DNA of 40,932 nt from a virus: UHGV virus genome UHGV-2003109. One strand, 5' to 3'. The stretch's first letter is position 1. Each line of letters starts with the position of its first letter. Below are positions 1 through 11,600 of this stretch, piece after piece. The translations under genes and the position numbers were made by a program. Under the pieces are notes generated by a model. That model worked only from the letters and a program-made list of their open reading frames with translations, was not told the origin of the DNA and did no database searches.

Positions 1-91
1 CACAACATCCGAGAACAGCAACACCCGATACTTTTTCCTGGCTTCCAGCAACGGGGTTTCTTCCTCCGTTGCATATACAGCTCACCTTTTT

Positions 92-385
92 TCACCCACG
101 ATTAACCAACAGCCAGACCAGCAGACACGCCACCACCGGCACAGCAAAATCCATCAGGCTTGCCACATCCCAAGCACGCGGATCAAAACCGCCCCACCAC
201 GGCATATTCATTCGCTTGCCATGCCCGAACATTTCAATCCAGCGATATTCTGCCTGGGTATGTTCACGCGCAATGAAGAACGTACAACCGGCTATCGCTC
301 CGTAAGCCCAGTTTCCGGTAAAAAGACCAACCAGTATCTGCGCAGCCACAGCACAAAGTGCATGAAGTAAGGGGCTTATATCCAT
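92..385 (-). CDS. Hypothetical small membrane protein (two hydrophobic segments), distal gene of the tail fiber operon
   Basis: ATG at 385 preceded by AGGAGG Shine-Dalgarno; hydrophobic stretches AVAAQILVGLF and FAVPVVACLLVWLLV; no family recognised. Confidence 0.5.
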   Translation of the reverse strand: MDISPLLHALCAVAAQILVGLFTGNWAYGAIAGCTFFIAREHTQAEYRWIEMFGHGKRMNMPWWGGFDPRAWDVASLMDFAVPVVACLLVWLLVNRG

Positions 386-397
386 TATTTCCTCCTT

Positions 398-676
398 TCA
401 GCTCCATTCCCGAAGCGGTGTTTCCAGCTCCACGACATAATCAGAGAATACAGAAACATCAAACAAGTCATCAAGAATGCGAATGTTGACAAAATAACCA
501 TCATTCCGGATACAGACAGGTTCTCCCTCTTCTGTTACCCCTGTTTCTGTGTAGGTGAAACCAATTTCATCAACTAACAGTTTATTCTGGAGGTCTTCAT
601 CTTCCGCCCAGCCAAGAGATGACAGGAAGGCCTTAAACTGCAGTTTGTCATAAAACTTCAAAGTTAAATCTTTCAT
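398..676 (-). CDS. Hypothetical acidic protein translationally coupled to the tail fiber gene (possible fiber accessory/chaperone)
   Basis: ATG overlaps stf stop in an ATGA motif; AAGAGG RBS; no recognisable Tfa motif. Confidence 0.5.
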   Translation of the reverse strand: MKDLTLKFYDKLQFKAFLSSLGWAEDEDLQNKLLVDEIGFTYTETGVTEEGEPVCIRNDGYFVNIRILDDLFDVSVFSDYVVELETPLREWS

Positions 677-2733
677 ACGACCTCTTTTAATTGCCTGTCA
701 TTTAATTCTTTATGCCATATGCGGAAATTGCGAATATGGCCAAACAGATGTCGTTCTCCAGTATTCGTCTGCCCTCCAAATCGGATATTTTTATCAGCGG
801 TCACGCCATTATATTCACAATAAACTTCATTAACCGCTTTACCATTTGTCACCACATGAAAGTGACCATCAGCTTTTGCAATACATCCAAATGTGGTTTT
901 CTCTGCAAATACATCTGTCGCTGCGCTATTAACATACGAGCCTGAAGGGTTTGACAGACTCATATATAACTTACCACTACCTCTGTTGATTGCTGCAATT
1001 GCTGATTGCCCGGTATTGGCTGCTGCTATATCCCACACGCGGGGTGCGGCGTTTGGTGCAATATCCCAGTTTTTATGAATCTCAAGTAAAAAAGTAAATG
1101 GTAACTTATAAAGATTATTTCTGGTGGGGATACTAACCAAATCACTGGCTCTTGTCGTTGCGCTGCCTCCTGAAATAATAAATGATGATACACACGGCCC
1201 ATTCTCTACTTGTGGGGTGGCAAGATAAATATAGTCACCAGATACTGTTGCCCCACCCTGCTCAGGAGAATACTGTATCTGAGAGCCTATTTTTAACTCA
1301 CCATCAATTGCCTGAATCGTTGCCTCTGCAAAAATCCAGCCTGTGGTCTTATCCTTCCTGACTCGTGCCGTAATTCTGCCGGCAGCACCACCTGTCATAT
1401 TAATTTCAAGCGTTTGCGTATCAATGTACGCATCGCCAAGAAAAGTTGTTGCACTACCATCATACTTATCAAACCGTATACGTAACCTTACCTGTCGTTC
1501 TGTTTTAAAACGGCATGAGGTTGTCACGTACTTGTTATCGCCTGAGACATCAACTGACTTTGTTGCAGCAATTGATGCCATATTAATAGCCGAAGTTTGC
1601 CCAACCAGAGAATCGTTGCAGACAAACTTTCCATAAGTAAAACCAAAACTATCCGTCCCGGTTTCGGGCACATCCATGTTTGATGACTTCCCCCAGCTGG
1701 CTGGACTTTCCGAATTGAGCATGTAGTTCGTTCTTTGTCCCTCAATAAGCAGGCCATCACACTCAAATCGCGGCTCATTAATTTCCGCCGTTTTCAGTTC
1801 GCCAGATTTGTTGATATATGTTGCCGTTGATGCGCGACTGAAATTAACCTGTTTATCACTGGCGACCTGAACCACATCGTCACCAATAGCTATTTTTTTA
1901 TAGCCCGGAGAAAAACCCGCAATCATATCCAGTGAATCGTTAAACGGTATCCACACATCAGGCAGCGGCGGCACTATATTCGCATAGGGCTCTGCAGTCA
2001 CTTCCGCTGCGACTTCTGCGCGGTCTGCCGCCTTTTCAGCCCGTGTCGCTGCCGACAGAGCCTCATCCTTTTTCTGCCCGGCCTTTGTTGCGTCTGCTGC
2101 GGCCTCCCGCGCTTTTGTGGTGGCGACTCCGGCATTTTCAGCGGCTGACTCTGCATTACGGCGGGAAGCCTCTTCACTGTCTGCGGAGGCTTCTTCTGAC
2201 GCACGGGCATTTGTCTCTGAACGTTCTGCCGCTGTTGCTGCGTTTTGTGCGGCTGTTTTTGAAGAAGCTGCCGCTTTCGCGCTGTTACCTGCATTCGTCT
2301 CTGATGTTTTCGCCGCATTCCTGGACGATGCCGCTGCTGTTTCTGATTTCTTTGCTGCCGCTGCGCTCTGAGAGGCGGCTTCAGCGTTGCGTGCCACCTC
2401 TTCCACCATCTTTTCAAAACGATACAGTGCCTCCGGACGAACATCATCTTCTGTTGCAGCGCCCAGAAAATCATTCAATGTCCCCGGCTTAGAATCCTCA
2501 TACACGGTGATAGCCCCGGCATGTGAAGGCGGAAAACCTTCAACCAGCAGGATAACGCTGTACTGGCCATACTCGACATCCATGCTGTAACGTCCGGCTT
2601 CATCCGGATTTTCTGAGGCCACCGTGTTCACCACAACCGTGGTGCTGTTACGTTTTGCTTTGAGCTGAATGGTGCAGTTCTGTATCGGTTTTCCTGCACC
2701 GTCTTTCAGCACGCCTGAAATCTGTACTGCCAT
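673..2733 (-). CDS. stf: Side tail fiber protein with lambda Stf-like N-terminus, Ala/Ser-rich repetitive shaft and a lectin-like C-terminus
   Basis: N-terminus MAVQISGVLKDGAGKPIQNCTIQLKAKRNSTTVVVNTV... matches lambda Stf; track start 2739 is GTG, probable ATG at 2733. Confidence 0.85.
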   Translation of the reverse strand: MAVQISGVLKDGAGKPIQNCTIQLKAKRNSTTVVVNTVASENPDEAGRYSMDVEYGQYSVILLVEGFPPSHAGAITVYEDSKPGTLNDFLGAATEDDVRPEALYRFEKMVEEVARNAEAASQSAAAAKKSETAAASSRNAAKTSETNAGNSAKAAASSKTAAQNAATAAERSETNARASEEASADSEEASRRNAESAAENAGVATTKAREAAADATKAGQKKDEALSAATRAEKAADRAEVAAEVTAEPYANIVPPLPDVWIPFNDSLDMIAGFSPGYKKIAIGDDVVQVASDKQVNFSRASTATYINKSGELKTAEINEPRFECDGLLIEGQRTNYMLNSESPASWGKSSNMDVPETGTDSFGFTYGKFVCNDSLVGQTSAINMASIAATKSVDVSGDNKYVTTSCRFKTERQVRLRIRFDKYDGSATTFLGDAYIDTQTLEINMTGGAAGRITARVRKDKTTGWIFAEATIQAIDGELKIGSQIQYSPEQGGATVSGDYIYLATPQVENGPCVSSFIISGGSATTRASDLVSIPTRNNLYKLPFTFLLEIHKNWDIAPNAAPRVWDIAAANTGQSAIAAINRGSGKLYMSLSNPSGSYVNSAATDVFAEKTTFGCIAKADGHFHVVTNGKAVNEVYCEYNGVTADKNIRFGGQTNTGERHLFGHIRNFRIWHKELNDRQLKEVV

Positions 2734-2791
2734 ATTCACTCCACAAATAAAAAAGGCGCCATTTCTGGCGCCCGTATCTGGGTTATAAAAT

Positions 2792-5700
2792 TCAACTGAT
2801 ACTGATACCGGCTGTAGATTTCTTCATCACAACAACAAGAAGGTCGCTGATACTGGTCGTTGGCGTCCAGTTATTAGCACCATATGAAGAAACATTGAAA
2901 GTCAGGGTGACATGGCCGTGTCCGGCAGGCATATCAATGACTGATGAAAATACCCTGCTGACATCCGTCGCGGGTTGCTGAAAGATTTCCTGTCCGTTCT
3001 TCAGTACCTGCAGCTTACAGGTTGAATACCAGTATGACTGTTGGTTGTTGCTGTTGAAGTTTTCATGCTTACCCCCACGAAACAGAACGGGGGGGACTAC
3101 TATCTGACGGTCAAAAGCCTGGTCATCGTACACAGTGACCGTTATTGTACCGCTGGCATAACTGCCATTTCTCGGAAAGGCTTTTCCCACCGTTTTGACA
3201 ATATCACCTTCAATCTGGTTAGCTGACAGTTTTCCCAGAATCCGACAGTTCTGATTAATCGTGACGTTGTTGAGCGTCCCGGAGTTCGCGTTCACGTTAC
3301 CGCTGATATCCGCATTTTTCGCAGAAAGTCGACCATCAGGTGTCAGTGAAAACGTTGGGGGATTGCCACCGCTGGTAATGGTGGGAGCCGTCAGATATTT
3401 CAGGAACACTTCGTTCATGAATATCTGATCGCCCTGCCCAACAAACATCGGCTTTGTGTTGCCATTCGCAGGATTAATCATCGCAATCCTGTCCGCCGCC
3501 AGCAGCACCTGACTCTGCATACCGTCAGGAGTATTCTCAATACCGGCACCAATACCCGCGATATAAAGGCGTCCGTCCTGCATCTGCTGCAGCTTCACAG
3601 CCCACATGCTGTTCAGGTTATTATTTGTATCAACCTGAACCTTCTGTATCTGCTGGATCGCTGCACTCTGGTCTTCCAGTTTCTTATTGACGGTCTGCGT
3701 GATTTCATTGCTGACACCCGTAATGGACGTCCTGATTTCAGCCAGGTCAGGCGCAAGCTGACCGTTATCAATCTGCGTCCACAACTCCTGAGCCAGATGG
3801 GTTTTCCCTATCTCTCCTTTGAAAAAATTCAGATAGCCGGATGCATCATCACTCGGCTGGCCAACAGCCTCCACAAATGCCGATTTGCCAACGGTGTTCA
3901 CACTGCGGATGTAAAAATAATAATCATGGCCCGGTTTGATATTGATACTGGCGGCTATCCAGTACAGCGCCGTGCCAAGATAGCGTGCTGTGGTTTCAAC
4001 CTGCCTGATATCCGCAATCCGCTTTTCCGAGAACCAGAACTCAAACTGTACCGTCGGATCATAAACCGCAAGATGCGGCGTGGCGGTTATCTGAAAATAC
4101 CCCGGTGTCAGCTCAATCTGCGACGGCGCTGCCGGTGCGGCAATCCGGAACGATACCGATGCCGGATCGCCCTGCTGCCCCCACGCATTTACTGCCCGGA
4201 CTGTCAGCCTGTAGTTCCCCAGCGCCAGTTGTGTGAAGCGGTATGTGGTTTCCGCCGTCCGGGCTGTGCTGACCAGCCGCTCACTGCCGTCATCCGCTGC
4301 CACGGTCAGGCGAAGCATGAAACTCACGCCCTTCACCACCTTCGGCGTGTCCCAGCGGGCCAGTACCTGATACTCCCCGCTGTCTGCGGTGACTTCGGCA
4401 GTCAGGTGCTGCACTGCTGGCGGCGTGACACCATTCACCGTGCCGCTCTGGTCGCCGTCAAAGTGCGCCCCGTTATCCACGATGGCTTCTTTTTCCGGTA
4501 CATGCTGCACGGCGGTGATGGCATACGTGCCGTCGTCGTTCTCACGGATACTCACGCAGCGGAACAGGCGCTGGCGCAGCGTCGGCAGCTTCAGCCCCCA
4601 CACGCTGTATCCGGCAACGCCGTCAGGAACACGGCTAACTTTCACCTTCACGCCGTCGGTGACGGACTGGACCTCCACGCTGACCGGATTGCCATTTCCG
4701 TCAACCAGGCTTATCAGCGTGGTGCCGGAGGATGGCAGCATGATTTCACGGTCGAGCGTCAGTGTCCGCGCCTGGCTGTTCACCGCCAGCACGCGCCCGC
4801 CGATGCTGATACCCGCATAGTCATCATCGCAGATTTCAATGACATCGCCCGGTACATGGCGAAGCCCTTCTGCGCCCACGCTGAAGTCCACGGTCTGCGT
4901 TTCCAGCAGCTCCGTTTTAATCAGCCACAGCCCGGCGCGGTGTGCCTGCCCCCGACTGGTACAGCCAAAGGCATCCATCTTCGTGACGTTACGACCGTAA
5001 CGGGCAATGGCCTGCGTGTCCTCCACAAGCTCTGTCGCCGTCTCCCAGCCGTTATCCGGGTCAATCCAGTTCACCTCAACGGCATTATGGCGGTCTTTCA
5101 GGGCGCTGAAGCTGTAGCGGAACGGCGCACCATCATCCGGCATCACCACATTACTGCAGTTATAGGTCCACACCTTATCCGATGGTCGGTCCTGCACGAA
5201 TGTCAGCGTCTGTCCGTTCCATACCGGCATACAGCGCATCGCCGAGCAGAAATCACTGAGCACATCCCACGCCTTACGCTGTGTGGTCAGCCAGGCATTA
5301 CAGGTGATGCGCGGCTCCGTGCCACCAAAGCCATCCGGCACCGACTGGTCGCAATTCTGGCCGATGACATACAGCGCCCATTTGTCCACATCCGCCGCAC
5401 CGAGACGTTTCCCCATGCCGTAGCGCGGATGGGTCAGCATATCCCACAGACACCAGGCCATGTTGTTGCTGTATGCTGGCTTAAACGTTCCGTCCCAGAT
5501 ACCGCTGTATTGCCGCGTCTGCGGGTTATAGTTCGACGGCACCTGCAGAATGCGCCCGCGAAGATGATAATTACGGCTCACCTGCTGACTGCCGAACTGT
5601 TCCGAGTCCACCTGCACGCCGACCAGTGCCGTGTTCGGGTAGCACTGTTTCACATCGATGATTTCGGTGTATGACGACCAGAGCGTTTTGTTCTGCAGCT

Positions 5701-6274
5701 GGTCTGTGGTGCTGTCCGGCGTCATCCTGCGCATCCGGATATTAAACGGGCGCGGCGGCAGGTTACCCACCACCACCGAGGCCAGATACTGCGAGGTGGT
5801 TTTGCCCTTAATGGTGATGTCTTTTTCCGTCACCCAGCCACCGTTACGCTGTATCTGAACCAGCAGGCGGACTTCCGACGGATTCCTGTCCCCCTTTGAG
5901 GTGGTTTCCACCAGTGTCTGCACGCCGAAAGTAAAACGCAGACGGTCAATGTTTGCCGACGTGATGGTCCGGGTGATCGGCGTGTCATATTTCACTTCTG
6001 TACCGAGCACCGTCTCGGAACCGGAGGATTCAAACCCCTCCGGCGGAGTCTGCTCCTGCTCACCTGCCCGGAACACCACCGTGACACCGGATATGTTGGT
6101 ATTCCCCTCAGTGTCCAGCACCGGCGTACTGTTCAGCAGCACGCTTTTTAATCCATCCACCGGACCTTCAACCGGCCCTTCGCTGATGGCATCGATCACA
6201 CTCAGCAACTGCGTGGACTTCAGGTTGTCCTTCGCTTCGCGCGGGGTATGCCCCTTACTGCTGCCTTTACCCAT
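2792..6274 (-). CDS. J: Tail tip host specificity protein J (central tail fiber)
   Basis: 1160 aa; N-terminal ~900 aa nearly identical to lambda gpJ ([24 protein letters not shown]...); C-terminal ~250 aa diverged. Confidence 0.95.
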
Positions 6275-6334
6275 TCCTCACGCTCCGTAAACGACAAAAC
6301 CGCCCGCAGGCGGTTTCACATAAAACATTTTGCA

Positions 6335-6982
6335 TCAGCGACCAATCACCACAACCTGACCACCGTCCCCTTCGTCTGCCGTGCTGATCTCCTGAGAAAC
6401 CACGCGTGACCCCACGCGCATTTCCCCGTACAGAACAGGCAGAACATTGCCCTGGGCAACCATGTTATCCAGTGAGGAGAAATAGGTGTTCTGTTTGCCG
6501 TTATCTGTACTTGCTGCCGTGGGCGTCCTGGCTTTCGGTGCCAGCATCTGCGCCACTCCGCCCAGGATCATACTGGCCCCTGCCGCATACATGCCCGATA
6601 CAGCCGCGGCACCCAGCCAGCCCACAGGGTTCCACCATGCCACCGCAATCAGCGCCGCCCCCAGCACCACCTGAAACACACCGCCACTTTTAGCTCCCGC
6701 CAGACGCGGCACGATGTGGATCACGGCACCATTTGCCAGCGGCTCATTAAGACGGGCAGACAATTCGGTTTCACCTGCATCACGCCCGGCAATGCGTACC
6801 TGGTACCAGCCGTCGCTCAGTTTCTGACGAAACGCCGGGATCTGCATGGCCAGCGCCCGGATGGCTTCGGACCCCGTTTTCACTCGAAGGTCGATGCGGC
6901 GGCCAAATCGTTGTAAATCCCCGTAAAGGCAGATGCGTGCCATGCCCGGTGACGCCAGAGGGAGTGTGTGCGTCGCTGCCAT
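6335..6982 (-). CDS. I: Tail assembly protein I
   Basis: Lambda gpI-like sequence and position between K and J; overlaps K as in lambda. Confidence 0.9.
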   Translation of the reverse strand: MAATHTLPLASPGMARICLYGDLQRFGRRIDLRVKTGSEAIRALAMQIPAFRQKLSDGWYQVRIAGRDAGETELSARLNEPLANGAVIHIVPRLAGAKSGGVFQVVLGAALIAVAWWNPVGWLGAAAVSGMYAAGASMILGGVAQMLAPKARTPTAASTDNGKQNTYFSSLDNMVAQGNVLPVLYGEMRVGSRVVSQEISTADEGDGGQVVVIGR

Positions 6983-7623
6983 TTGTCGGTGTACCTCTCT
7001 CGTTTGCTCAGTTGTTCAGGAATATGGTGCAGCAGCTCGCTGTCACCACAGTAAATGGCGGCATGATTCGGCACCGATGAACCAAAACAGCACAGCAGCA
7101 CATCGCCCGGCTGCGCCGCTGACAACGGCACCTGATACAGCCCTGTGGCCTCCAGATTATCCAGATAGAGATTCTGACCGTGACGCCACCAGTCATCCCC
7201 GCGATGAAAATCCGGCATCTCAATCCCCGCCAGATGGTAAGCATCCCGGAACAGCGTGTAACAGTCCGTCACCCCGTGCTCAAAGCGCCGCCCGGAAAGA
7301 TGTGGCACACAGCGGAACTTGTGAATCGCCCCCCGGCAAACCAGCCACCACGGCAAATCACTCTGCACTTGCAGCCGCCGGTCGGTCTCACTCAGCCAGG
7401 GCAGACCACCGGGGTGGCTGTGGACCAGCGCCACAATCTCACCCTGCATCTCTGCCCGCAGCCAGTCCTCCGGCGACATCCGGAAATACTCCTCCGGCTC
7501 ACCGGAGATATTCACGCAGGGAAAATATCTTTCCCCCTCCGGTGTTCTCACCACGAAGCCGCACGACTCCGCTGGCGCACATCGCCGGGCGTGCGCCAGA
7601 ATCGCTGATTCTGTCTCTGTCAT
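6880..7623 (-). CDS. K: Tail assembly protein K
   Basis: MTETESAILAHARRCAPAESCGFVV... matches lambda gpK, including the HSHP motif; ATG at 7623 follows L stop. Confidence 0.9.
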   Translation of the reverse strand: MTETESAILAHARRCAPAESCGFVVRTPEGERYFPCVNISGEPEEYFRMSPEDWLRAEMQGEIVALVHSHPGGLPWLSETDRRLQVQSDLPWWLVCRGAIHKFRCVPHLSGRRFEHGVTDCYTLFRDAYHLAGIEMPDFHRGDDWWRHGQNLYLDNLEATGLYQVPLSAAQPGDVLLCCFGSSVPNHAAIYCGDSELLHHIPEQLSKRERYTDKWQRRTHSLWRHRAWHASAFTGIYNDLAAASTFE

Positions 7624-7628
7624 GGGAT

Positions 7629-8327
7629 TCACTGCGAAAGTTTGTTAATGGAAAGGAAGCCGCCAAAGTTGCCGACGTTATTGCGAAACTTACAGCCGCT
7701 CAGGCATTTGCTGCATTTATCCTTCGTGATATCGGACGTCGGCTGATCATATTCATCCGCGACCGCCGGACCGTGATAACCGCACTCATCACCGCGATAG
7801 GTCCAGGTGCAGGTGTTGGCCAGCATGATACGTCCCGGAAAAACGGCACCGTCCGTTTCCGTCGGCGTGGACAGTACAAAAGAGGCACTCACCGCGCTCA
7901 GTTCGCTGCACTGCTCGATGCGCCAGCGGCTGATCACCTCCTGCTCCGGATCGGCGTCACTGTTTCCGTTGACGAAGTTCACCGCATCCAGAAAACGGGC
8001 ATAAACCTTACGCCGGACCACCGTTCCTCTGACCAGACTCTGCAGGTCTTCCGCCATCCCGGTGACCATGCCGTGCAGGTTAGAAACCGTCAGTGTCGGA
8101 CGGGCAGCACTGCCCTTGCCGTTCAGTTCAAATCCCGTCCCCTGAATGGGATACGCCTGATACTGTCGCCCCTGCCAGGTGACCGGCTCACCTTTTTCGT
8201 TCTGCTCATTACAGAAAAAATAACGTTCTCCACCGACCACTGTCAGATCGATTTCCCAGAGCACCACCTGGGCTGACTGAGTGAGGCGTGTCGTCTCATG
8301 ATGTGTTTCCTGTGGAATATCCTGCAT
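7629..8327 (-). CDS. L: Tail tip protein L
   Basis: Lambda gpL-like, 232 aa, with C-terminal cysteine cluster. Confidence 0.9.
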   Translation of the reverse strand: MQDIPQETHHETTRLTQSAQVVLWEIDLTVVGGERYFFCNEQNEKGEPVTWQGRQYQAYPIQGTGFELNGKGSAARPTLTVSNLHGMVTGMAEDLQSLVRGTVVRRKVYARFLDAVNFVNGNSDADPEQEVISRWRIEQCSELSAVSASFVLSTPTETDGAVFPGRIMLANTCTWTYRGDECGYHGPAVADEYDQPTSDITKDKCSKCLSGCKFRNNVGNFGGFLSINKLSQ

Positions 8328-8336
8328 CAGAGACTC

Positions 8337-8666
8337 CTATGCCACGACCTGTTCAAAATCTGCCGTTATGGTTACCCACAACGCCCCCACGCTTGCCGAC
8401 CATTTACGACAAACCACCCTGATCGGCTTCCAGTCATAAGGTGGCGTCCACTGAAATGCGCGGACGCCACCGTGCCGTTCCAGAAAGGCTTTTAAAGATG
8501 GGTGTTCACATTTACGAACACGTATCGTCACGCTGTAAGTCGACAACTGGTTATTCAGTCCCGCCGCACGACGCTGTTCATAACCATCGCCCAGCTTCAC
8601 TGTCACCACTTTCGGCTCTGATACCACATTCATATCCGGGCGCACTTTCCAGTGAAACGTCTCCAT
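8337..8666 (-). CDS. M: Tail tip protein M
   Basis: Lambda gpM-like, 109 aa, located between H and L. Confidence 0.9.
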   Translation of the reverse strand: METFHWKVRPDMNVVSEPKVVTVKLGDGYEQRRAAGLNNQLSTYSVTIRVRKCEHPSLKAFLERHGGVRAFQWTPPYDWKPIRVVCRKWSASVGALWVTITADFEQVVA

Positions 8667-11600
8667 TACCGATATGCTCCACTTAACCGACCACCATCAC
8701 GGGCCTGCTGTTGCATAAAGTCCGCTGCCGCTTTTTTCCCAAGGTCATAAACCACCTTCAGGGCAGCCGGACCTATCTGCCCGTTCGTGCCATCGTTATT
8801 GATCTCGATGTTGTACTGCGGGGCAAACATCGCCATACCTGAACCACCAATATCCGCCACAACCCCCAGCTTACCGTCAGCACCACGACGCAGTGGCAGA
8901 ATGGCTTCAGGTCCAGCTTCCCCCATCACACCCGCGCCTTTTGCAAAAGCAAAAAACGTCGGACGGTTAACCACCGTGCCACTGTAACGACTCAAATCAG
9001 CAGACTGATAAATCCCCCCATTGGCATTCAGGGAAAGGCTGCTGAGATCAAATCCCAGTACACTGCCAATCCCTTTTATCGATTTCATCATGGTTGCCTG
9101 CGCCAGGATTTTCGCCATATCTGACAGCACAGAAGAGGTGAAAGATTTGAAATTGAGTTTGCCGGTAGTGACAAAAGTTGCCAGGCCATTTCCCATGTTG
9201 CTGAAGGCTGACGAGAACACCTGTTCTGCTGTTTCTGCCGTATTATCTGCATCCACGGTAAAATCCTGAAATGCACGCAGGACTCCGTTTTTCCAGTTAC
9301 CCTGCACAACTTCAAGCTGTTGCCAGTAACGGCGATTCTCATTCAGTTGTCGGTTCAGGCTCTCCGTCAGCGCCTGCTCGGCCTTTCTGTAGTCATCCGT
9401 GTTATATGTCCCTTTCTGCTCACTATCCCGCCTCAACTGCTCCAGCTGTTGCTGGTATTTCTGGCGAAGACTCAGTTGTACCTGATATCGCTGTCGCTGC
9501 TGATCACCCATACCCACCGTGGCGATATCCAGGTCATGTTGCTGACGCTGAGCGCGCTCTTCTTCAGCCAGTTGACTGGTCAGCTGAATTGTTTTTTTCT
9601 TCAGCTCGTTGAGTGCCGTCTGTTTCTGAAGCTCCTGCTGTTTTACATCCAGCAGCGTCAGTGCCTGAATCAGTTCATCTTTACGGGCCAGCACACTCTT
9701 TTCATCTGCCGTCAGTTTTTTCCCGTCCAGGTCGCTGATGCGCTGCTGCAGAGCCAGAAGCTGTTTATGCGCTTCTGTCATCCTTTCCGTGGCAATGCCT
9801 GCTGACTGTCTGGCAGCAGCAATCTGTCCTTCCACCTGTGCCTGTTGCTGACTGTACTGCAGCAATAACCGGGTGGCCTCATCATTACGGGTTTCGCGTG
9901 TTTTTTTCTTACCGGATGCCAGGGCTTTCTCGTAACGTTCATTTTCACGTTGTATCGCCGCATCCCTGACAGCCTGATCGGCGTACTGCATGGCATTAAT
10001 ACGCGCAATTTCACGCTGATGTCGTGCTGCTTCCGTTTCATTCATCCGGTTCAGTGCAGCATTTTCAGCATTACGGCGTTTCTGTTGCTCCTGATAATTC
10101 CGCTCTGCCTGCTCTTTTGCATCCTGCAAATCCTTCTGGCGTTTTTTCTCCTGAAGATCGTTAAGACGCTGCTGATCGTATTCAACCTGAGAAGATGATG
10201 CCGTCCAGGGGAGTCTTTTCGCCCGCGACACTTTCTCCTGTAAAGCGGCAATCTGTTCATCCAGCGAGTCTTCACGACCAATATTCATGGCCGTATCCCA
10301 GAAACGACTCCACAAATCAGACAGATACTTCAGCGTACTGCCAAGCGCATTGAGGTTATTATCAATATCCGCAGTACGCCGACCGGTTTCCTCTGCCAGT
10401 GCAGACATGGCTATCCGTGCAGCATCACTGGACCGCCCCTGCTCCCCAAGGACGCGTATCTGCTCAAGCTGAGTGGCAGTAAGAAAATGCAGCTCATTGT
10501 CCAGAGCCTTCGCGGCATTTACAGGATCATCCTTCAGCCGCTTAAACTGATTTATGGTATCGCTGACCGACTGGCCAACCGATCGCTCCATCTGTGCGGC
10601 AGCTCTCGCCACCATACCGATATCGTTTCCACGAAATGCACCACTCCCCACCACCTGAGCCAGCGCACCGGCTGCAGCATGTTGCGTGATACCATTCCCG
10701 GAAATAGCACGACTGAGCGTCCACAGCTGCCCGGCAGTGACTCCGGCATAATGCCCCGTCAGCGACAACTGGCGGTTAAATTCTTCCCCCTCCTTCTGAC
10801 CGTCATACCAGGCTTTACCCAGACCATAGACGGCCGCGGCAATACCGCCAATAACCCCGCCAAGCATCATGCCTTTCGGTGACATCAGTGTGTCTATCCA
10901 TCCGGCACGGTTAGCCAGCGTTATCCCGGATCCCCTCAGCGCCCCTAAATTGCCGCGGGCCAGTTCACCTATCAGAACGCCTATCTCCTGGCGGGCTGCT
11001 GCACTTTTCAGACCCAGCGAATGCGTGGCTTTTCCTGCCTGCTCCATTTTGCGGATATACACTTCTGCAGCACTGCTTACCCCCAGCTGGGCTGCCTTAG
11101 CACGAAGCAACTCAGAAGATGAAAGATTCAGGCGGGTTGCCTGCTCTTTAAGCTGACGGATAAACGCCACTTTCTGTCGGGTAGCCTCTTCCTCAGCCTG
11201 TGTAAGAACACGGGTTTTCGCAGTAACCTCAGAAATCAGCGCCAGATAATCCTGCTGACCAATCCCGCCACTGTTTCTGGCCTGTCGGATCTGCTGCTGA
11301 ATACGCTGTAATTCCTGCAGCCCCGCACTGGCCTGTTTCACACTGTCAATCTGACGATAAAACGCAGCAGCCGCTTTATCCTGAGCCTCCGCCAGAGCCA
11401 TGGCCTGCGCCTGTTCCTCGCGCATTTTCTGGCTCAGTGCCTCCATGCGCTGGCGGGTTTTCTCCACCTCGCGGGCCATGCGTTCATGAGCCTGTGCGTT
11501 CTTCTCCACCGTCTGCGCATGGACGGATGCGGCTGTTGCAGCCGAAGAAGCCGCCTGCGTTGTCTGCCGGGCGGCCTGAGTCTGACGCTCCATAAAACGC

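Follow-up and report, generated by a model that had tools for sequence, protein, structure and literature searches.

The host range of coliphages, like that of lambda-based particles for DNA delivery, is set by side (or lateral) tail fibres, and in several described systems the fibre gene is directly followed by a small gene. In lambda this arrangement is seen in the stf-tfa pair, which is placed after the central fibre gene J. The intermolecular fibre chaperones and adhesins gp38/gp57A of T4, Tfa (GpU) of Mu, those of the R-pyocins and gp27 of Alteromonas phage V22 are likewise small and encoded directly after the fibre gene, with V22 gp27 showing that non-homologous types of fibre chaperone exist (PMC7289586). 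Here we describe an arrangement of this kind near the start of UHGV-2003109, a viral genome of 40,932 nucleotides (nt), the whole of which is called the window below and provides all position numbers. It comprises three genes on the minus strand: stf, encoding the side tail fibre, followed by the genes for a protein of 92 amino acids (aa) and one of 97 aa. An earlier note on this DNA had read them as a fibre with a lectin-like tip and two coupled small genes in place of Tfa, possibly a novel chaperone and a moron. The new point emerging from our analysis is a near-universal pairing of the uncharacterised 92-aa protein with lectin-tipped fibres across coliphage families. The best overall explanation, which taken as a whole we hold to be moderately probable, is that the region represents the distal host-recognition (side tail fibre) module of a phage 21-type lambdoid prophage.

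The pairing was examined in 160 loci fetched with queries from two sub-families of the 92-aa protein, to which phage 21 and Escherichia coli 536 were added, giving 162 loci with a homologue. The tip is encoded alongside the homologue in 158 of these, and the exceptions are mostly cut at a contig end. The fibre stop codon overlaps the start of the 92-aa gene in 159 of 161 loci, by 1 nt (107 loci) or 4 nt (52 loci), and adjacency was verified by coordinates in at least 30 sampled records. The pairing also holds where the 92-aa homologues are only 25-35% identical and where the fibre carries a non-lambda N-terminus (PF12571, PF03406). Its phyletic spread includes: 1) among annotated phages, lambdoids, T1-like phages of ~50 kb, dhillonviruses and the T5-like phage EC100; 2) the Queuovirinae, with KurtStettler/Bas22 (Seuratvirus) and JenP1/2; 3) rV5-like myoviruses, in which the homologue is a divergent 110-aa form (hhalign probability 97.9); and 4) prophages whose next gene looks gpD/baseplate-hub-like by eye and which are apparently Mu/P2-type myoviruses. 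In an exhaustive profile search the family grew to comprise proteins of 85-110 aa sharing the motifs MxDxxLKF, DxIG, GYxVNxR and a C-terminal PxRxW; large PKD/TPR repeat proteins also retrieved were rejected as members, their profile matches being spurious as shown by Pfam. We found no paper describing this pairing in the literature searched, and the fibre allele carrying the module lies outside the coverage of the rV5 virion proteomics paper.

Mean identity is 55% for the 92-aa protein vs 33% for the tip. The divergence of the small protein best tracks that of the proximal 150 residues of the tip (from 440 to 290 residues before its end; rho 0.79), as against 0.57 for the middle and 0.66 for the distal part, and the proximal stretch contains a conserved entry segment. 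The near-universal synteny, together with the overlap of stop and start codons, leads us to conclude that the 92-aa protein is in all likelihood a dedicated partner of this tip architecture, acting on conserved parts of the tip. Its binding site may be the conserved segments at the tip's entry and exit, not the variable sugar-binding surface. Two side observations concern the distribution of the module. In IMGVR_UViG_3300011762_000002 (3809-8298) two fibre-plus-92-aa modules, both complete with tip and small gene, stand in tandem and are directly followed by a 97-aa homologue (61% identical); this is the sole carrier of the 97-aa gene among the 80 loci recovered with the query from the distant 92-aa sub-family. 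Furthermore, records labelled 'Campylobacter phage' (MG065635-MG065692) and 'Listeria phage' (OR847733/OR847806/OR848352) hold fibre modules 70-98% identical to those of rV5- and T5-like phages of E. coli; their host labels are probably wrong or the records contaminated.

The 92-aa protein is acidic and soluble (10.7 kDa, pI 4.1) and devoid of membrane or signal features; its AlphaFold2 (AF2) model is a compact alpha/beta structure (pLDDT 90), with lower confidence in a conserved C-terminal tail, P-x-R-x-W. Neither small protein yielded a match to Tfa (PF02413) or to any other entry in Pfam, NCBIfam, PADLOC or the sequences of the PDB, and the earlier note's view that neither is a Tfa therefore stands, including for the 92-aa protein, whose possible Tfa homology it had singled out in advance. 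The known downstream fibre chaperones differ from the 92-aa protein in lacking any similarity of sequence or fold to it and in being twice its size, and they act on tips of beta-helical or needle type, whereas the tip it would serve is a lectin-type sandwich. The position of its gene and the overlap with the fibre gene speak for an assembly factor, as do the acidity and cytoplasmic character of the protein; most likely it functionally replaces Tfa, with a chaperone activity that we infer from these features. The overlapping stop and start codons would have it made in step with the fibre, and it would most likely work in the cytoplasm as a fibre-tip assembly factor, although it could instead stay on the fibre. 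In our judgement the chances are even that it defines a new, widespread class whose members have an alpha/beta fold of their own, serve only lectin-tipped (CBM plus LamG) fibres as assembly or accessory proteins, and share no homology with Tfa, gp38, gp57A or the DUF4376 chaperones.

The tip itself occupies the last ~430 residues of Stf, which are unrelated to the tips of lambda and T4 gp37 and match PHROG 1419/5939, NF048003 and PF13385. No match to a lambda Stf/T4 gp37-type distal tip was found in the C-terminus with Pfam or PHROG, and Pfam detected no Peptidase_S74 intramolecular chaperone domain in Stf, in keeping with the ConA/LamG-like tip suggested at the outset. The central part matches NF048003 over residues 331-531 (55.7 bits against a cut-off of 36) and the head fibre protein GhsB (Rcc01080) of the Rhodobacter capsulatus gene transfer agent (RcGTA), with E=1e-9 for the single sequence and E=5e-38 for a profile built from 44 diverse homologous tips. 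This profile further recovers the solved phage baseplate and fibre proteins 8env, 9b45 and 9occ (~5e-14) and the CBM4 module of laminarinase 1gui (E=0.003). At the distal end, PF13385 (Laminin_G_3) scores 24.5-25.7 bits on this Stf, under the gathering cut-off of 27.6, and is matched by 26 of the 44 homologous tips with a best E=1e-10. A structure model of the tip from a shallow alignment was poor (pLDDT 48), and the evidence for its fold is only indicative. Taken at the level of domain families, the tip is predicted to be composed of two beta-sandwiches of sugar-binding type, one CBM-like and the other LamG/ConA-like.

From these families we infer that the tip binds glycans, a role supported by GhsB, which mediates binding to the capsule polysaccharide of R. 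capsulatus (PMC7296036, PMC10218006). GhsB differs from the present fibre in being a single subunit carried on capsid pentamers through an N-terminal Leu-Gly repeat, outside any tail fibre, and in having no LamG match; its solved structure covers residues 2-10 only, leaving the fold of the shared domain without an experimental structure. The same tip is fused to differing fibre N-termini (PF12571, PF03406), which marks it as a mobile module, and it is present in 218 phage records spanning several families; the prophage proteins of E. coli that bear it number in the thousands. In the proposed mechanism, the Stf N-terminus would dock on the tail tip and the Ala-rich helical shaft would lead to the two-domain distal end, which most likely binds a surface polysaccharide (the O-antigen or core of lipopolysaccharide, or capsule) for a reversible first contact. 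J would bind LamB while Stf makes this first contact; phage 21 is known to use LamB through J (bioRxiv 10.1101/2024.04.15.589635).

The proximal part of the fibre and its surroundings point to a lambda-type ancestor. The N-terminus matches the Pfam family phage_tail_N (PF08400) with 230 bits against a cut-off of 26.6, and residues 3-96 are ~88% identical to the solved N-terminus of lambda Stf (9e7m, E=1e-49). The shaft that follows (residues 104-253: Ala 34%, Glu 13%, Ser 11%) is presumably a helical coiled coil and, by analogy with lambda Stf, the fibre is presumably trimeric; the lambda-like N-terminus and Ala/Ser-rich shaft of the earlier note are thus borne out. As with lambda, stf lies directly downstream of J and is immediately followed by a small gene. 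Directly after the stop codon of the 97-aa gene, 57 nt on the minus strand align to the 3' end of lambda tfa (NC_001416), with 16 of 19 residues identical in tblastn and ~90% identity at the DNA level both to lambda tfa and to a homologous locus (L088) from O157-type lambdoid prophage contigs. This alignment ends at the junction with a convergent sitABCD insert, and no other Tfa-like sequence was detected in the window at E<0.1. The relic shows common ancestry of the two loci and an ancestor with a lambda-type stf-tfa pair, in which a cassette displaced most of tfa together with the C-terminus of Stf. Of the two crossovers, the right one falls within tfa and the left one at the tip start or upstream of it. 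In O157-type relatives the relic reaches the stop codon of tfa, and another copy borders a methyltransferase insert: at 3548-4716 of L088, and also in L093 and L151, two tfa 3' ends flank an oppositely oriented 222-aa gene that is methyltransferase-like by eye. These flanking copies suggest that the conserved end of tfa is a repeated recombination site for the insertion of cargo. The insertion that cut the tfa relic short is that of the sitABCD operon for an iron/manganese transporter, a large phage-borne cargo associated with virulence. In phage 21 as in E. coli 536 (positions 2551-6000 of the two loci) it begins just past the window start and runs convergent to the 97-aa gene.

Two hydrophobic stretches, at about residues 1-39 and 73-95, would give the 97-aa protein two or three membrane spans (the phage 21 record lists two transmembrane domains), and its gene has a strong ribosome-binding site, in agreement with the small membrane protein first noted from the letters. 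The loop between the hydrophobic segments is extremely conserved (AREHTQAEYRWI...MPWWGGFDPR), the form EHTQAEYRWI...MPWWGGFD being recognizable at ~60% identity between E. coli and Comamonas. The protein has no Pfam or PADLOC match and, by inspection, no lipobox; no PADLOC match to a known superinfection-exclusion or defence family was obtained for either small protein. The two small genes had been taken as a coupled pair, a view that holds only for the 92-aa gene, which tracks the fibre, and not for the 97-aa gene, so that they do not form one functional pair. In E. coli prophages the 97-aa protein is 88-100% identical while the 92-aa protein is ~52% and the distal tip 31-43% identical, and a second fibre gene is often inserted between the two small genes. 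Most of the 75 phage records with the 97-aa gene are temperate, and the virulent phages with the tip and the 92-aa gene lack it. Elsewhere, its homologues follow a P2-type fibre without an intergenic gap (Leclercia), lie between two pectate-lyase tailspikes (Salmonella), or come after J and a tailspike (Citrobacter), after a J-like protein (Comamonas) or after the fibre assembly gene of Halomonas phage phiHAP-1, a slot that is held by Z/fun in P2. In Aeromonas, Sphingomonas and other genomes the neighbours are ordinary cellular genes, for example those for Pirin, DNA ligase and FtsZ.

Z/fun of P2, Cor of phi80/N15 and gp15 of HK97 are morons at the ends of tail or fibre operons, and the 97-aa gene shares with them its slot, small size, membrane association and, among phages, near-confinement to temperate ones. 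It differs from them in being a non-lipoprotein with no promoter of its own detected and with cellular homologues in non-phage contexts. Given its independence of the fibre module and its homologues with non-phage neighbours, the 97-aa protein, for which the earlier note had surmised a moron, looks like a host-derived one at the fibre-operon end, outside the fibre machinery; it belongs to a bacterial family of small membrane proteins carried by temperate phages at this position. One locus bears on a candidate that we set aside. In Comamonas testosteroni (CP043573, locus 1-7986) a J-like protein, called at 2,520 aa with its start beyond the locus edge, has repeated modules in its C-terminus. 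Downstream of it come a 72-aa gene, the 97-aa homologue and an apparent lysis cassette, in which membrane proteins are joined by a possible lysin of 183 aa and by a spanin-like pair that has a lipoprotein open reading frame (ORF) embedded in it. A holin function was rejected because the other contexts are unrelated to lysis; phage 21, moreover, has its own lysis genes elsewhere.

Certain observations weigh against the assembly role proposed for the 92-aa protein. The evidence that ties it to the tip is synteny, and CBM and LamG domains usually fold unaided. Tips with only 15-40% identity go with near-identical 92-aa proteins, a behaviour not expected of a strictly allele-specific chaperone, so that any binding must target conserved parts. 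Phages in which an insertion sequence (IS) element parts the stf 3' end from the 92-aa gene were nevertheless isolated as phages, and the module is hence dispensable for propagation on the hosts used. In phage Lambda_4C10 (LR595861, 5577-8243), and also in 4A7, 1W and 3W, the element is a three-ORF mobile element with an IS66-like layout, which removes approximately the last 45 stf codons. Finally, a short second fibre gene begins 3-12 nt after the 92-aa gene in most loci, which fits an adaptor role too. The main rival accordingly holds that the 92-aa protein is a virion-bound structural adaptor docking this second fibre, producing a branched fibre like LtfA/LtfB of DT57C, a T5-like phage, and that it is left over in phage 21-type prophages after loss of the second fibre. 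The gene in question encodes a fibre-like protein of 230-360 aa, sometimes being replaced by another tail gene, with a very short N-terminal segment before the shaft and, by eye only, a C-terminal S74-type chaperone motif. The order of fibre A, 92-aa gene and short fibre B, which resembles a two-fibre system, recurs in EC100 and KurtStettler, and the conserved P-x-R-x-W tail could serve as a docking peptide. Nonetheless, the 92-aa gene is retained, intact and overlapping, where a second fibre gene is absent, as in phage 21, E. coli 536 and the loci with a gpD/baseplate-hub-like next gene. Moreover, LtfA and LtfB of DT57C are the consecutive products gp108 and gp107 with no small gene between them (PMC10713586). 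LtfC of DT57C was tried as a relative of the 92-aa protein and rejected, for it is an unrelated 140-aa collar protein encoded upstream of the fibre; conversely, the window has no fibre B. We regard the adaptor as unlikely. A further proposal, that the 92-aa gene hitch-hikes beside the fibre gene as a moron or regulator unrelated to it, is very improbable: phage lineages with no other sequence in common keep the strict adjacency and overlap, and in ~160 loci the gene never occurs away from this tip type. An assembly factor dedicated to the tip thus remains our preferred interpretation of the 92-aa protein.

The moron-like interpretation of the 97-aa gene has its own difficulty, in that a crude scan found neither a sigma-70-like site upstream nor a terminator-like hairpin after it, which is atypical of a classical moron. 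A different proposal ties its product to host recognition, as a protein that blocks superinfection or that changes or hides an entry factor or surface glycan; this would account for its adjacency to receptor-binding genes in Leclercia, Salmonella, Citrobacter, Comamonas and phiHAP-1. The very strong conservation of its loop also speaks for the proposal. Cor, Llp and HK97 gp15 offer precedents for exclusion genes within tail gene clusters. Against this, the 97-aa protein shows no co-variation with the type of receptor-binding protein, is chromosomal beside Pirin, DNA ligase and FtsZ genes in many genomes, and has no lipobox, PADLOC or Pfam match to place it among such proteins. Since the fibre-operon end is a general moron slot, as P2 Z/fun illustrates, position alone says little about its role; the proposal is thus a tentative one that we hold to be possible though not likely, and superinfection exclusion in particular is a guess. 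With regard to stf itself, the RefSeq annotation of E. coli 536, with a 'pseudo' N-terminal fragment and a separate 'phage head spike fiber domain-containing protein', might be taken to mean that the gene is a decayed pseudogene. Both pieces, however, share a single uninterrupted frame of 686-688 codons, with no frameshift or stop within 673-2733, and Stf is annotated as intact and full-length in phage 21 and falls in a cluster of 2,232 member sequences. Decay of stf is scarcely credible on this evidence, and the split, with both pieces in one open frame, is an annotation artefact. In the E. coli 536 record (NC_008253; locus 6673-8733, equivalent to 673-2733 of the window) the PGAP features overlap, the N-terminal piece being marked 'pseudo, missing C-terminus', and the same split recurs in several listed E. 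coli genomes.

The layout of the locus is given in the table below. The longest ORF for stf spans 673-2739 with a GTG start (688 aa); the ATG at 2733 (686 aa) is the likely start, because it is used in the phage 21 record and in the large protein cluster mentioned above. Domain boundaries in the table refer to the 688-aa frame. The stf stop and 92-aa start share GTATGA, giving at 673-676 the ATGA overlap reported previously, and the 92-aa stop and 97-aa start are spaced as TGA-AAGGAGG-AAATA-ATG. Because each belongs to a conserved family, all three genes are, on homology, genuine and not chance ORFs. A 625-aa frame antisense to J (3797-5674, plus strand) is Arg/His/Cys-rich, lacks the hallmarks of a gene and is almost certainly a chance ORF.

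Table. Positions in the window of the side tail fibre module, its domains and its flanking features
Feature	Positions	Strand	Basis or remarks
J-type central fibre gene	2792-6274	-	ORF call; upstream of stf
Terminator-like GC hairpin and T-run between J and stf	2754-2773	-	Scan; the phage 21 record also annotates a terminator
stf, side tail fibre gene	673-2733	-	686 aa from ATG 2733; PHROG 1419 'tail protein'
Lambda-type N-terminal anchor domain, residues 3-133	2341-2733	-	PF08400, E=1e-68
Ala/Glu/Ser-rich shaft, residues ~106-255	1975-2424	-	Composition
Conserved tip entry segment, PLPDVWIPFNDSL...	1846-1968	-	Invariant or near-invariant columns in 44 diverse tips
CBM-like beta-sandwich, 'GTA head spike fibre' domain, residues 299-545 (predicted)	1105-1845	-	NF048003; Rcc01080
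Lectin-type domain, LamG/ConA-like, residues 562-683, with the conserved GHIRNFRIWHKEL motif at its end (predicted)	691-1056	-	
92-aa gene	398-676	-	ATG overlaps stf TGA; PHROG 1361
AAGGAGG ribosome-binding site	391-397	-	5 nt before the 97-aa start codon
97-aa small membrane protein gene, moron-like	92-385	-	PHROG 1443
Lambda tfa 3'-end relic (codons ~156-174)	16-72	-	tblastn and DNA alignment

As a sequence the region is neither rare nor new, being public yet functionally unannotated. Positions 1-2800 are 100% identical to E. coli 536 and other strains and 99.4% identical to lambdoid phage 21 (OL657228), and about 450 of 5,426 complete E. coli genomes have a near-identical copy spanning at least 80% of this stretch. 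The phage 21 record names the three genes 'side tail fiber', 'hypothetical protein' and 'putative membrane protein'; the two small ones, genes 23 (92 aa) and 24 (97 aa) of phage 21, were left without assigned function in the genome announcement (PMC9119081), and functional work on phage 21 Stf or on either of the small genes did not turn up in our literature search.

The tfa relic is a clean example of the swapping of whole tip-plus-helper cassettes between phages. The 97-aa family represents a conserved membrane protein repeatedly found beside receptor-binding genes in temperate phages, and hence a candidate for lysogenic conversion or exclusion. The partner gene of the lectin-type tip is still annotated as 'hypothetical'; should its product be required for assembly, both the engineering of chimeric fibres and the prediction of host range from sequence have so far lacked a part. 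Were the 92-aa protein indeed to define a new class, engineered or chimeric fibres with such tips would need it to be co-expressed.

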